DNA of 64,000 nt from a virus, in IMG/VR virus record IMGVR_UViG_3300031857_000136; one strand, written 5' to 3'. How positions within the stretch are numbered: the first letter of the stretch is position 1; each line of letters starts with the position of its first letter. The notes beneath the pieces were generated by a model, which saw nothing but the letters and a program-made list of their open reading frames with translations, was not told the DNA's origin and ran no database searches. Position numbers and translations under genes: made by a program. This document shows positions 8,101 through 10,779 of this stretch, piece after piece.

Positions 8101-10779
8101 AGAATTATACTCTCTCATGTTTGCAGAGAATTCAGACAGTTTCTCATCTGTAAAGTCTTCTCCTTGAGCGTTAGCAGGTCTACCTTTGTAAGTAGTATTG
8201 TAATCATCAATAAGTTGCTGACCCTCTTTTCTCATCACCTTAATTACATCTACAAGAGGAGCAATGTTTAATGTACCCTGAGCTGTACGTATAGCTTGCT
8301 TTAGGATGTTCAAACGGTCACGCTTGAACTCACGCTCATCTTCTTCTGTAACCACCTTCTTAGAGATCTGTTTGTAAGCAGCATTAAGTTTCTTAATCAA
8401 TTGATCAAGACGTTCAAATCCTGTAGACTCTGTTTCTTCAGATACAGGAACTAAACGTAAGTCTTCTATCTCTTCTGTGTTCACAGAACCAATAGCAATA
8501 CCTGACAAGTTAATATTTGAGTTCTTATCCTTAGGATTTTGTAGTTTAAGTTCCATGATGATAGGAATAGCTCTATTCATACCCATCTCTTTCACACCAT
8601 ATCTCTCACGCAGAATATCCTTATATCTACCAAGTTGAATATTGTAAGCTCCCTGCTTAAACCAAGAAACATCTTTAGCATCAGCAGCTACACTCATAAA
8701 CTTCCAGTCTATAATATTAGCCTTACCATTCTCTTCTACAATCAAAAGGTCAATTGTACCAGCTTCTTTTTCTTTAGGGTCATAGATAACTACCTCAGAG
8801 AATACAAGAGGATTCTTGCCATCTTTAGAGAACCTATCGATCAAAGCAGTGTAATACTTCTCTAGTTTCTCATACACATCTTCATCTATAGAAGATAGTT
8901 TTGCTGCACGTGGATCAACATTCTTCTTTCTTGTTCCATCAGAATTGAAATATCTTCCATGGATTTCTTCAAAGAATTTGTGTCCTTTTACACCAAGTTG
9001 TCTCTTAGTTTCATTAAACTTTTTTTCTTCCTCTGTAAATACTTTACCAGGAAAGCGTTGTCTGTACCAAGCCTTCACACGGTCAGTTACCCTCTTAGTT
9101 ACACGAGCCCATGTACCATCAGGTTGTTGTGCCTCATACCAGTTGGATGCTTCTTCTGTATCTAGAAGAATAGGATCTGTAGCTTGTTTATCTTCAACCT
9201 TCCTGATACTATCTTGTGTCTGAAGGATACGTTGTTGTATAGCCTTCTGAGGATCAGATAGTTGGTAGTAGATTTGGTCAGCACCAGCATCAATGACATT
9301 ACCTTCAACACCTTCCTCAATAATAGCAGCAGCTTCTTGGAAGATGTCAATATTAGCAGATTTGTACATTCCTCTGAACCAGTCAAGAATCTTCTCAAAG
9401 AAGTTTCTGATGATAGACCTATTGGTCTCATCCATAAGCTCAGGGAATTCTGTTGTACCCTCGTTGTTGTATACAATCAACTCAGCAATCAACTTATCTA
9501 CAGCCTCTTTCTTTATCTTACGAATGTTAGGCTTTCCATTAGGAAGTTGATAGTTAGGATTGTTCTTATACTGGTCAAGGGTTTGTTGATAGATGGCAAA
9601 CCTATCTATCTTACTAATCATTTGTGTAACTAGCTGAGGATTCTTCTGCTCTAGAATAGCTGTTGCAATGTGCACCATCTCTTCTGTTAGAGCTACGTTT
9701 TCTTTTCCTTCAGCTATAGCAATCACCTTACTCACTACATCAGCCACAGCATTTATTCCTGTAGAATTTAAACCAGCCTCACGTGCGTAGGTAGCTAGGT
9801 CCTTGATGGTTACACCCATCTTCTCTAGGATCTGCTTTACCTTACTAATGGTTTCTGGAGAAGCTTGTGTAAGAGGCATTTCTGCCGTTTGAAAATTAAT
9901 ATTATTAGGATCGTAATAAAATGATACACCACCATCAATAGGTTTTACACGAAAAGCACCTTTTGATTCTAACTCTTTCATCTTAGCAACTTTTGCTGCC
10001 ACTGTATTTTCTGTTACTACAGAACCAGATTTAGTGTTATCATATCCACCCTTATCTATAGCAAATGATCCTTCATTAAATACAGACTTAATTTGGTTAG
10101 ATGTTTTAACAGCATATATATTCATGTTCCCACCTTCATCATTGGTTAACATACCACCAGTATCTGAAGTATCACTACTTAAACCAAAATAACCATCTTC
10201 TACTATTTCAAGTTCTTTTATATTTAAAAATGCTGGATATACTTTTCCACTTTTGTCATAAATATTTTTCGCAGCATTAAATTCTTCTTCACTAATTTTA
10301 TATTTTTCAACAGCTTGATTGGGTTTTAAACGCTCACTAGGTAAATTAGTATCTTTTTTTAAAAAGTAATTATCATTTCCTATACTAATCTTTTTATAAT
10401 TAAACCCATTTACAGAAAAGATTCCATCATTTGGTATTATTTTTTGACTTCTATAATAATCAGCATAACGTAAATCTGGAGTAAAATAAATACCTAACTC
10501 ATTACGTTTTAGTTTGTTAGAATCAAATATTTCTATGTTTTCATTATCTGTACCATGATATACTACTAATGGTTCACCTATTGCATTTACAACCTTAGAT
10601 ACATCTCCTCTATTTGGTCTTGTCCAATCACCAAACCAAGCTTTAAACTCATCAGAACGAAGTTGATTATACAACTTGTCAGCCTCTTCTTCAGTTGCTA
10701 CAAGTGCTCTTATATCATTCCATGTTTGTGATGTTTCTTCTTTACCTGTAATAGGTGATGTGATTATTCTACAGCTCAT
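5113..10779 (-). CDS. 1888-aa multidomain virion/cargo-type protein. Residues 60-110 carry ADP-ribosyltransferase-like (H-Y-E class) motifs. Residues 600-720 carry RecB/Cas4-family PD-(D/E)xK nuclease motifs. K/E-rich helical regions make up much of the remainder.
   Basis: ORF track. The ART-like motifs are VVYHGTDNE...(21 aa)...LGIYFTPDLRYADYY, which can be compared with diphtheria toxin YHGT...GFYSTDN and PARP1 HGS...GKGIYFAD. The nuclease motifs are HKFFEEIHG ... GTIDLLIVEENGKANIIDWKF ... QLGRY (nt ~8600-8990). Confidence 0.85.
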   Translation of the reverse strand: MSCRIITSPITGKEETSQTWNDIRALVATEEEADKLYNQLRSDEFKAWFGDWTRPNRGDVSKVVNAIGEPLVVYHGTDNENIEIFDSNKLKRNELGIYFTPDLRYADYYRSQKIIPNDGIFSVNGFNYKKISIGNDNYFLKKDTNLPSERLKPNQAVEKYKISEEEFNAAKNIYDKSGKVYPAFLNIKELEIVEDGYFGLSSDTSDTGGMLTNDEGGNMNIYAVKTSNQIKSVFNEGSFAIDKGGYDNTKSGSVVTENTVAAKVAKMKELESKGAFRVKPIDGGVSFYYDPNNINFQTAEMPLTQASPETISKVKQILEKMGVTIKDLATYAREAGLNSTGINAVADVVSKVIAIAEGKENVALTEEMVHIATAILEQKNPQLVTQMISKIDRFAIYQQTLDQYKNNPNYQLPNGKPNIRKIKKEAVDKLIAELIVYNNEGTTEFPELMDETNRSIIRNFFEKILDWFRGMYKSANIDIFQEAAAIIEEGVEGNVIDAGADQIYYQLSDPQKAIQQRILQTQDSIRKVEDKQATDPILLDTEEASNWYEAQQPDGTWARVTKRVTDRVKAWYRQRFPGKVFTEEEKKFNETKRQLGVKGHKFFEEIHGRYFNSDGTRKKNVDPRAAKLSSIDEDVYEKLEKYYTALIDRFSKDGKNPLVFSEVVIYDPKEKEAGTIDLLIVEENGKANIIDWKFMSVAADAKDVSWFKQGAYNIQLGRYKDILRERYGVKEMGMNRAIPIIMELKLQNPKDKNSNINLSGIAIGSVNTEEIEDLRLVPVSEETESTGFERLDQLIKKLNAAYKQISKKVVTEEDEREFKRDRLNILKQAIRTAQGTLNIAPLVDVIKVMRKEGQQLIDDYNTTYKGRPANAQGEDFTDEKLSEFSANMREYNSFADVFGRIDDLIGELIYNKDMEKGATTEEAQDDIAMRKELLKNISDEAREIRLSAEQIRNVSGEFADKFIGQKNLVKGLLSPEAVVKGLSATFRGISELPMASLQVLYKLVTNAKGRASREALGEVDKLMAIRKKLIDRGGDIRALVQQIYQKDSKDKLVNKLIYKFDKKFFDEVDNNSLEGYRDKRWIMDNIDVDAYRKEAKELLDKKIERIKKLHDDDVDLMERLILEEQRKWNIDRKDFIGWNNYIIKRHPLTKWYSEEYKNLLNDPELLELYNFISEMNQKAKSSGYIGNQVASTFLPFVRKGMAESLAWDFDLSAVMNFGKNLQLQADDVGYGQVNELTGELENAIPKYYTYDFTRGEDGVNDYSDVSEDIFKNMILYINHMEKYKYLSEVEDQLQLVKTIETFKGYLSTDNNGEVVYDKNNRPQVMSEGNATSEGNAKIFNDFLRALLYEQKYPLSDSDTPLAVGKVMNFIKGAVNSVAGREVFKPEENPSATSLVKTMDAANRAFQLKTLGLEFISGAVNAFGGNIQIATQAGNYFKAREVLANEVKLVGNKFKNDEERDMFLQLIDTFMPLKDDPTYEKLQKSGLTKLTRASFSDFLMVFMREPEQHIEKSIFLTLLDNMMVEDGKIVSIREFVKRKYKDRYDSASKYKEVASKIDEEIEELKKTRSLNVVKKLENGKLVIPGLDLSNVTELQRLTNLTRRISRNATGNLADSDLNRMGMNIWTKSMMIFKNWIPKLVDTRFGEFRKVSDDFSVEIGEDGLTTGEKYDIGRIRLFAYVLGTSIRDKSSNIYNILSLNDKGLAAMDKMYEEFAEQYQKRTGKPLEMDRDEFIDMVRTNLRNQVKELSILMSMFGAMFALGFAAPDDDDDRADKNFHRYTERVIDKFIGELSFFYNPAEFQKILSGSMFPAIGIFSDIGRFTSHVTMEMTGLDTSNPELSADQVRKKAQPVKNLGKMFPITKSLFTYGGILDADFAKEFDITIQKESRR

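Follow-up and report, generated by a model that had tools for sequence, protein, structure and literature searches.

A predicted RecB-family nuclease domain in the conserved backbone of a probable crAss-like phage cargo protein encoded next to the virion RNA polymerase

The gp66 polymerase of phage phi14:2 leaves double-stranded M13 DNA untranscribed and is only weakly active on the phage's own native genome; on single-stranded or denatured DNA it is efficient in vitro, and an early promoter motif was not found in this phage (bioRxiv 10.1101/2020.03.07.982082). The gene for gp66 is directly followed by that for gp65, named an 'RNA polymerase associated protein', which the g065 record describes as a virion protein on the basis of MS/MS. 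In crAss001, gp49 is encoded directly after the polymerase gene gp50. Here mass spectrometry has shown gp47, gp49 and gp50 all to be virion components (Bayfield et al., PMC10172136, who prepared samples under both non-reducing and reducing conditions), gp47 and gp49 being annotated as 'putative RNA-polymerase subunits'. It is already known that large proteins of the transcription block of crAss-like phages, in genomes from the human gut, carry PDDEXK domains, to which no function was assigned (Yutin et al. 2021, PMC7886860), and the protein described below adds one member to this set. It also resembles the polyvalent proteins (Iyer et al. 2017) and the packaged ADP-ribosyltransferase Alt of phage T4, in which several enzymatic domains are brought together in one large virion-associated polypeptide.

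The window, that is the whole stretch of DNA analysed here, comprises 64,000 nucleotides of a virus (IMG/VR record IMGVR_UViG_3300031857_000136). It encodes, on the minus strand, an 1888-aa protein with the following features and the following upstream neighbour.

10785..24179, minus strand: 4464-aa virion RNA polymerase polyprotein, upstream of the 1888-aa open reading frame
5113..10779, minus strand: 1888-aa open reading frame, by homology the counterpart of the crAss-like 'RNA-polymerase-associated' cargo protein (phi14:2 gp65 / crAss001 gp49 / cr108_1 gp052)
10582..10779, minus strand: N-terminal leader, aa 1-66, containing the sole cysteine of the protein, C3 (10771-10773)
10072..10581, minus strand: ART-PolyVal ADP-ribosyltransferase domain (Pfam PF18760), aa 67-236, the variable head
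5116..9912, minus strand: conserved backbone, aa ~290-1888, from BLAST alignments to homologues
8308..9183, minus strand: predicted PD-(D/E)xK nuclease domain, aa ~533-824, with catalytic core at aa ~583-746
8956..8982, minus strand: motif I, HKFFEEIHG, aa 600-608, on the helix aa 583-610
8794..8796, minus strand: E662, an acidic residue of the first core beta-strand (aa 658-667) that does not vary in alignments A1 and A2
8737..8760, minus strand: motif II, GTIDLLIV, aa 674-681 (D677), on the strand aa 672-681
8698..8715, minus strand: motif III, IIDWKF, aa 689-694 (D691-x-K693), on the strand aa 687-695
8623..8637, minus strand: motif IV, QLGRY, aa 715-719 (Q715, Y719), on the helix aa 707-727
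5470..5544, minus strand: hydrophobic helix, aa 1746-1764 (Kyte-Doolittle 1.75), then an acidic patch, DDDDD, aa 1765-1769

The upstream polyprotein carries a DFDID motif at aa 3297-3301 (14277-14291) and a DprA-like module at aa 4182-4344 (11148-11636), and its only cysteine is at aa 4463 (10791-10793). It matches PHROG 768 (E 9.6e-42) and, by blastp, phi14:2 gp66 (E 4e-25) and crAss001 gp47 (E 1e-29) and gp50 (E 1e-18), while a Pfam scan at E<=0.01 returned nothing. The 1888-aa open reading frame lies directly downstream of this DFDID polymerase, an order shared with cr108_1, crAss001 and phi14:2. Upstream, this strand also carries the genes for TerL, the portal, the major capsid protein and the tail. 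The TerL shares 40% identity with that of Leptolyngbya phage Lbo-JY46, 33% with that of Cellulophaga phi17:2/phi4:1 and about 27% with those of the Crassvirales. The window represents a distant lineage relative to the human-gut genomes of Yutin et al. 2021; its protein is an instance of the same phenomenon, to which it adds this lineage and the combination with an ART head.

When the whole protein was compared by tblastn with 50,697 phage records, only the N-terminal aa 39-120 were matched, and a word-indexed search with the nuclease domain alone recovered just 13 fragments, so that an exhaustive profile search was required. The crAss-like homologues surfaced only when the domain was searched at a less strict E-value, and afterwards in profile searches. 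Profile A2, built from 23 full-length homologues, matches cr108_1 gp052 (E 3.8e-134), crAss001 gp49 (E 6.5e-35) and, in its C-terminal part only, phi14:2 gp65 (E 1.1e-10). A homologue search matched 851 proteins; the 120 of these that were listed all have the backbone, aa ~290-1888, in common, with BLAST alignments that begin at aa 268-300 of the query and extend to aa 1888. The N-terminal head is replaced in homologues by other or unrecognised sequences. Among 23 homologues picked for their differing heads, Pfam recognised, besides PDDEXK_1, only ART-PolyVal (3), HATPase_c_3 (1) and DUF2939 (1), and most heads had no match. As judged from these alignments, the 1888-aa protein is the counterpart of the virion cargo protein of the phi14:2 gp65 / crAss001 gp49 family, and the nuclease belongs to its slowly evolving backbone rather than to the variable head.

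The closest named relative is cr108_1 gp052 (KNV36_gp052, YP_010111146.1; Crassvirales, Steigviridae), a 'hypothetical protein' that is homologous over the full backbone, nuclease included, with motifs II-IV reading AGTCDL..., IYDYKT and QITQYK. It is encoded by the last large gene of its polymerase block and is the second-best structural match in BFVD. However, it is only about 21% identical by BLAST, lacks the ART head and has five cysteines against one in the window protein. crAss001 gp49 shares the backbone, the N-terminal cysteine and the C-terminal hydrophobic helix, but has a gap at the position of the nuclease. A nuclease of the same type, with motifs II-IV intact (D, DVK, QLSAY), is instead found at aa 1731-1881 of crAss001 gp47, which suggests that the domain shifts between proteins yet stays in the polymerase block, to which it is confined. 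Neither gp47 nor gp49 has an ART domain. phi14:2 gp65, which occupies the same place, resembles the window protein in its C-terminal two-thirds, its N-terminal MSC start, its single cysteine, and its hydrophobic helix and acidic patch; its N-terminal half, however, has a zincin-type HEIMH protease motif in place of the ART and nuclease domains, and no nuclease domain was found in phi14:2 gp65-gp68. cr130_1 gp80, which is encoded at the same place and begins similarly at its N-terminus, was considered as a further counterpart but was rejected because homology to the backbone and nuclease was undetectable even with TAG read as Gln.

Because full-length homologues, crAss001 gp49 and phi14:2 gp65, have both been found in virions, it is very probable that the 1888-aa protein is taken into the capsid and ejected from it, as a preliminary description of this DNA had proposed; for the homologues themselves it is presence in the virion that is known, and ejection is an inference there too. 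The same description had placed an ART in this polypeptide, and PF18760 does match aa 67-236 (E 4.4e-11), with a score of 44.1 bits where the cut-off is 31.2. An ART-PolyVal domain above cut-off, a nuclease domain and a position in the structural module are the marks of a polyvalent protein (Iyer et al. 2017), with which the late-gene setting and the hallmark ART-PolyVal domain are shared. The DNases in the polyvalent-protein catalogue, however, are ParB-like only, whereas the DNase-type domain found here is a PD-(D/E)xK domain.

Over aa 1-73 the protein shares 34% identity with aa 1-70 of gp66, the phi14:2 polymerase (E 6e-6). A cysteine lies within the first six residues in 221 of 236 full-length family members, for which the median number of cysteines is one per protein. 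Of 150 homologues with the acidic motif, 136 have a hydrophobic segment comparable to aa 1746-1764, and the C-terminal hydrophobic helix recurs in phi14:2 gp65, crAss001 gp49 and cr108_1 gp052. This helix is a possible membrane anchor.

The nuclease was originally recognised from four motifs, and with positions recomputed these are all present, in order, on the minus strand of the 1888-aa open reading frame, with the 13 residues between D677 and D691 that had been counted. Bare motifs prove little, however, since the loose pattern D..(D/E)xK..QxxxY arises frequently in shuffled versions of the protein (789 of 2000); the full ordered pattern with its hydrophobic context arose in 0 of 2000. Across 149 representatives of clusters at 50% identity, D677, D691, K693, Q715, Y719 and H600 are 95-100% conserved, with D677 kept in 144 of 144 aligned sequences, D691 in 139 and K693 in 144 of 145, and Q715 and Y719 in 137 and 138 of 143, respectively. 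Apart from these six, few positions in the entire ~2000-aa protein are invariant, and 13 of the 18 invariant columns among 23 full-length homologues fall inside the modelled nuclease stretch of ~300 aa. The first motif, HKFFEEIHG, is present, but the glutamate singled out within it, E604, is variable (E in only 99 of 145, elsewhere Q, D or N), and the conserved residue is H600 (143 of 145). The invariant E662 on the first core strand had been overlooked.

In the structural model the domain adopts the alpha-beta-beta-beta-alpha-beta core of the RecB-like PD-(D/E)xK clan, with D677 and D691-W-K693 on adjacent predicted strands, and the predicted active site is made up of H600, E662, D677, D691, K693, Q715 and Y719. 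Kinship to solved structures was detected by fold comparison only: searches of PDB sequences with the domain alone, with the domain profile A1 and with the full-length profile A2 found no relative, nor did those with the three other giant open reading frames of the window. The structural neighbours include RecE, AddA, AdnA and RecB, and identity to the solved structures of the clan (MGME1, AddA, AdnA, Cas4, Dna2, RecE, Exo5 and RecB) is 10-21%. For Pfam PDDEXK_1, whose cut-off is 22 bits, the domain on its own scores 23.7 bits and the full protein 20.0 bits; among 23 diverse homologues, 5 match it at E<=0.001, the best of them at 4.6e-6. Taken together, motif order, spacing and modelled fold identify aa ~533-824 as a RecB-family PD-(D/E)xK nuclease core.

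Of the double label 'RecB/Cas4-family' given to the domain, only the first half can be retained. Cas4 proper holds an Fe-S cluster by four cysteines, one N-terminal and three C-terminal to the core. There is no cysteine in aa 520-830, so that such a cluster cannot be held, and strict membership of Cas4 was rejected; the Fe-S cysteines of AddB, Dna2 and Exo5 are likewise lacking. Nor does the protein conform to the helicase-nucleases of the RecB/AddA type, in which an SF1 helicase is fused or partnered: at E<=10 Pfam detected no helicase domain in it, and the scan of its neighbour was empty, as stated above.

The best explanation for these findings, and one that we hold to be probable, is that the window encodes an intact, metal-dependent RecB-clan nuclease, as predicted from sequence and model, within a crAss-like cargo protein encoded right after the virion RNA polymerase. 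The cargo protein would be made late, kept inside the capsid and ejected along with the DNA into the cell. Its C-terminal hydrophobic helix may then tether it at the site of entry in the membrane, where the ART head would modify host targets and the nuclease would work on DNA within the first minutes of infection. We tentatively prefer a role in which the nuclease resects or nicks the entering phage DNA, baring the single-stranded template that the two-barrel virion polymerase strongly favours in vitro. As phi14:2 gp65 and crAss001 gp49 are without the nuclease, crAss-like phages do not need a packaged nuclease for their polymerase to function; the phage genome itself would also be at risk from an unchecked exonuclease at its point of entry. 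A more elaborate scheme, which seems unlikely as a whole, has the nuclease act as a helper of the crAss-type virion polymerase: it would be tethered at the entry site, possibly by a Cys3-Cys4463 disulfide to the polyprotein, the cargo would exit as an end-to-end chain, and the leading genome end would be resected to give a single-stranded template for promoter-less early transcription, with the ART head as an add-on effector.

The main rival is degradation of host DNA. The fusion of nuclease and ART had been taken to suggest a multi-effector cargo, perhaps for host takeover or anti-defence. On such a reading the injected nuclease would degrade the host chromosome, resident plasmids or prophages, or competing DNA that enters the cell, while the ART head modifies host proteins. 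The polyvalent architecture with an ART-PolyVal head fits this proposal, Iyer et al. 2017 (PMC5512222) suggest such roles for the DNase domains of packaged polyvalent proteins, and the heads vary as expected in an arms race. The two enzymes are indeed fused; they are not equivalent add-ons, however, for the nuclease sits in the slowly evolving backbone and only the N-terminal head is swappable. In addition, the domain is restricted to the polymerase gene block, nothing in the window indicates how the phage's own DNA would escape, and the figure of some six copies per virion for each polymerase-associated protein is given by Bayfield et al. (PMC10172136) only to illustrate packing. Host takeover or anti-defence is a possible though doubtful role, and one tied to the entering DNA and to the polymerase ejected alongside appears at least as likely.

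RecE and lambda Exo resect DNA ends. By analogy, the nuclease may cut back the terminal repeats of the linear phage genome as it enters, and the ends would then anneal or receive RecA via the DprA-like module of the neighbouring polyprotein. This is improbable, although RecE, AddA, AdnA and RecB are among the structural neighbours and a DprA-like module ends the upstream polyprotein both here and in cr130_1. Three related phages retain the nuclease but lack the module, for which reason a general partnership of the two was rejected; separate replication-module exonucleases are encoded by these phages, and the genome ends lie outside the window. Action on RNA, whether cutting host mRNA for shut-off or trimming the 5' ends of virion-polymerase transcripts, is very improbable, as the best matches and the QxxxY motif indicate the DNA-end-processing RecB clan. 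Finally, an inactive structural remnant, or a chance match of the motifs, can be dismissed almost entirely as an explanation: the commonness of the loose pattern and a seemingly degenerate copy without the lysine in the cr130_1 gp79 polyprotein are outweighed by near-invariant catalytic residues, a fold borne out by structure comparison of the model, and the absence of the strict pattern from the shuffles.

The catalogue of polyvalent proteins, hitherto limited in its DNases, is widened to a PD-(D/E)xK domain. The alignments reveal the gp65/gp49 cargo family as an apparently fixed chassis with exchangeable N-terminal enzymes. Within it, a conserved and, by prediction, active DNA-end nuclease travelling with a polymerase that prefers single-stranded DNA might render native phage DNA transcribable.

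The nuclease motifs lie within a single large open reading frame, at the positions given in the preliminary description.

5113-10779, minus strand: ORF for the 1888-aa protein, with the nuclease motifs inside
aa 600-608: HKFFEEIHG, motif I
aa 674-681: GTIDLLIV, motif II
aa 689-694: IIDWKF, motif III
aa 715-719: QLGRY, motif IV

Shuffling the 1888-aa sequence yields a loose D..(D/E)xK..QxxxY pattern 39% of the time, which makes the bare motifs weak evidence; when order and hydrophobic context are required in full, 0 of 2000 shuffles match. Pfam PDDEXK_1 matches the excised domain at 23.7 bits (E 5.3e-5; cut-off 22) and the whole protein at 20.0 bits, and aa 533-824 match PHROG 298 'exonuclease' (E 1e-6). 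In an AlphaFold2 model of aa 520-830, with an alignment of 24 homologues as input (mean pLDDT 80; core 92-95), H600 and E604 lie on a long helix, three consecutive strands carry E662, D677 and D691/K693, and the next helix carries Q715 and Y719. The predicted layout is canonical for PD-(D/E)xK enzymes, a topology in which the catalytic side chains would cluster in space. Foldseek searches against the PDB returned mostly PD-(D/E)xK families of the RecB clan, with weak scores. PDDEXK_1, PHROG 298 and the modelled topology agree on the RecB-family core that had been proposed, and together provide solid support for the prediction of an intact RecB-clan nuclease. The accompanying Cas4-family label has to be dropped, because the domain contains no cysteine, which rules out a Cas4-type Fe-S nuclease.

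At E<=0.001, a 90%-clustered database contains 851 relatives of the 1888-aa protein. The nuclease domain, used as query in an exhaustive profile search, yielded 652 representatives of 50%-identity clusters. The best 150 of these are mostly 1500-2400 aa long, the shorter ones looking like fragments.

Conservation of motif residues (149 sequences aligned among the best 150 of 652 representatives)
D677: 144 of 144
K693: 144 of 145
H600: 143 of 145
D691: 139 of 145
Y719: 138 of 143
Q715: 137 of 143
E604: 99 of 145

Motif I itself is thus upheld, but the glutamate put forward as its key residue is weakly conserved and H600 takes its place. In the RecB and RecE structures this helix contributes a histidine as metal ligand, which fits H600 as the conserved residue of the motif. 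An alignment of 23 full-length homologues (17-51% identity) has 18 invariant columns across the entire ~2000-aa protein, 13 of them in the ~300-aa nuclease stretch. This argues strongly that a catalytic function is under selection, and the domain is firmly placed under strong purifying selection.

The window is the late or structural module of a crAss-like phage; with every gene on the minus strand, it encodes TerL, portal, major capsid and tail proteins, several giant proteins, a 4464-aa ORF and the 1888-aa ORF. TerL is 40% identical to that of Leptolyngbya phage Lbo-JY46, 33% to those of Cellulophaga phages phi17:2/phi4:1 and ~27% to those of Crassvirales. A metallophosphatase of SbcD/Mre11 type (PHROG 704 'DNA repair exonuclease', E 2e-46) is also part of the module and may be the counterpart of phi14:2 g075, the metallophosphatase gene in the structural block of crAss-like phages.

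10785-24179, minus strand: predicted 4464-aa virion RNA polymerase polyprotein
44394-45644, minus strand: SbcD/Mre11-type metallophosphatase

The DFDID catalytic motif occurs in the 4464-aa protein. This protein aligns with crAss001 gp50 and the phi14:2 virion polymerase gp66 (E 4e-25 for the latter) and, at its N-terminus, with crAss001 gp47 and phi14:2 gp67, and it ends in a DprA-like module (aa 4182-4344, window 11148-11636; PHROG 768, E 9.6e-42). These features mark it as a fused 'transcription block' polyprotein. The DprA-like recombination-mediator module is absent from three closer relatives, which makes the C-terminal end of the polymerase a second variable-module slot, adjoining the variable head of the next protein; cr130_1 gp79 is likewise annotated as DprA-like. 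In cr108_1 (locus L005, ~9775-10066) the DFDID motif appears split at an annotated gene boundary, gp054 ending ...AGSD and gp053 starting LYDIDKMY, which suggests an intron, intein or annotation break. In cr130_1 gp80 (locus L004), TAG is read as a sense codon, with 31 in frame.

A profile of the 1888-aa protein family matches cr108_1 gp052 over its full length, nuclease included (E 3.8e-134), crAss001 gp49 with a gap exactly at the nuclease position (E 6.5e-35), and phi14:2 gp65 over the C-terminal two-thirds (E 1.1e-10). In all three phages the matching gene directly follows the polymerase gene. Mass spectrometry has detected crAss001 gp47, gp49 and gp50 in virions, where they are regarded as ejected cargo (PMC10172136), and the record annotation of phi14:2 g065 rests on MS/MS proteomics. 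The 1888-aa protein therefore belongs, on solid grounds, to a family packaged in the virions of cultured relatives. The crAss001 homologue of the nuclease domain keeps motifs II-IV intact and lies in gp47 (aa 1731-1881) rather than gp49; the domain thus shifts between proteins, yet stays within the polymerase block. An apparent degenerate PD-(D/E)xK remnant, ADIIVID...HVIDIL, without the catalytic lysine, is seen in cr130_1 gp79 (locus L008, aa ~1639-1700).

Homologue alignments run from aa ~290 to the C-terminus, with a second variable site near aa 490-510. In place of the first ~290 aa, homologues have heads of unrelated sequence, ~60 to ~900 aa long, or are joined to the upstream polyprotein. 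Heads with a recognisable domain are few: ART-PolyVal (in the 1888-aa protein and in 3 of 23 homologues sampled), HATPase_c_3 (1 of 23), GNAT (one homologue, in a precomputed Pfam listing), XRE-HTH (the name given to three homologues by a source database) and a zincin motif in phi14:2 gp65. With the backbone constant and the heads exchanged, the nuclease is thus the chassis and the ART the payload. About 125 aa before the C-terminus, the family, including gp65, gp49 and gp052, conserves one hydrophobic helix (aa 1746-1764) and, after it, an acidic run of five aspartates (aa 1746-1770 together, window 5470-5544); the pair suggests a membrane anchor inserted after ejection. At the other end, the N-terminal ~70 aa (MSC...FKAWFGDW; aa 1-66 at window 10582-10779) resemble the N-termini of cr130_1 gp80 and of the phi14:2 polymerase gp66 (the latter at 34% identity, E 6e-6); this segment may be a shared leader for cargo packaging or ejection.

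The cargo proteins are nearly cysteine-free (median 1 per ~1870 aa), their rare cysteines being located at the termini.

10771-10773: C3, the only cysteine of the 1888-aa protein
10791-10793: C4463, the only cysteine of the 4464-aa protein

The corresponding residues are C1797 of 1797 in gp67, C3 and C2179 of 2180 in gp66 and C3 in gp65 of phi14:2, and C2339 of 2341 in gp47, C5 and C2404 of 2412 in gp50 (which has a further, internal C1334) and C5 in gp49 of crAss001. The pattern recurs in cr108_1, cr130_1 and three metagenomic relatives (loci L005-L011 compared), and two homologues with long N-terminal extensions (5544 and 3006 aa), apparently upstream-polyprotein fusions, have no cysteine. 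Together these observations suggest disulfide links that chain the cargo proteins end to end, or a junction chemistry conserved among them. In sharp contrast to the adjoining cargo proteins, a Cys-rich ORF (2-4990, minus strand; at least 1663 aa) continues beyond the window start and contains 63 cysteines; it has no PHROG match, and a tail fibre or receptor-binding protein would be a guess.

The phi14:2 polymerase is inactive on double-stranded M13 DNA and weak on its own native genome, but efficient on single-stranded or denatured DNA, and its early transcripts share no common promoter motif (bioRxiv 10.1101/2020.03.07.982082). On the basis of this preference for single-stranded DNA, we favour action of the nuclease on DNA at the entry site, where a co-ejected end-resecting enzyme would supply the virion polymerase with single-stranded template. 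Against such template supply, no copy of the nuclease domain is detectable in phi14:2 gp65-gp68, and the DprA-like module is not consistently found alongside the nuclease. The main rival is degradation of host or competitor DNA, followed by end processing for circularisation. RNA cleavage is unlikely, as is an inactive domain. The preliminary observation is real and well supported, and its interpretation as multi-effector ejected cargo is partly right.

Polyvalent proteins and ART-PolyVal were defined by Iyer et al. 2017 (PMC5512222), and PDDEXK domains in large crAss-like proteins of this kind have already been described (Yutin et al. 2021, PMC7886860). In BFVD, several large crAss-like proteins are labelled 'PD-(D/E)XK endonuclease-like domain-containing'; a Virus NIOZ-UU157 protein (50% identity) is the nearest match by structure there. 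In the literature searched, no paper was found linking ART domains to crAss-like polymerase-block proteins. Finding PD-(D/E)xK in a polyvalent protein that also bears an ART domain makes a modest addition to the catalogue of Iyer et al.
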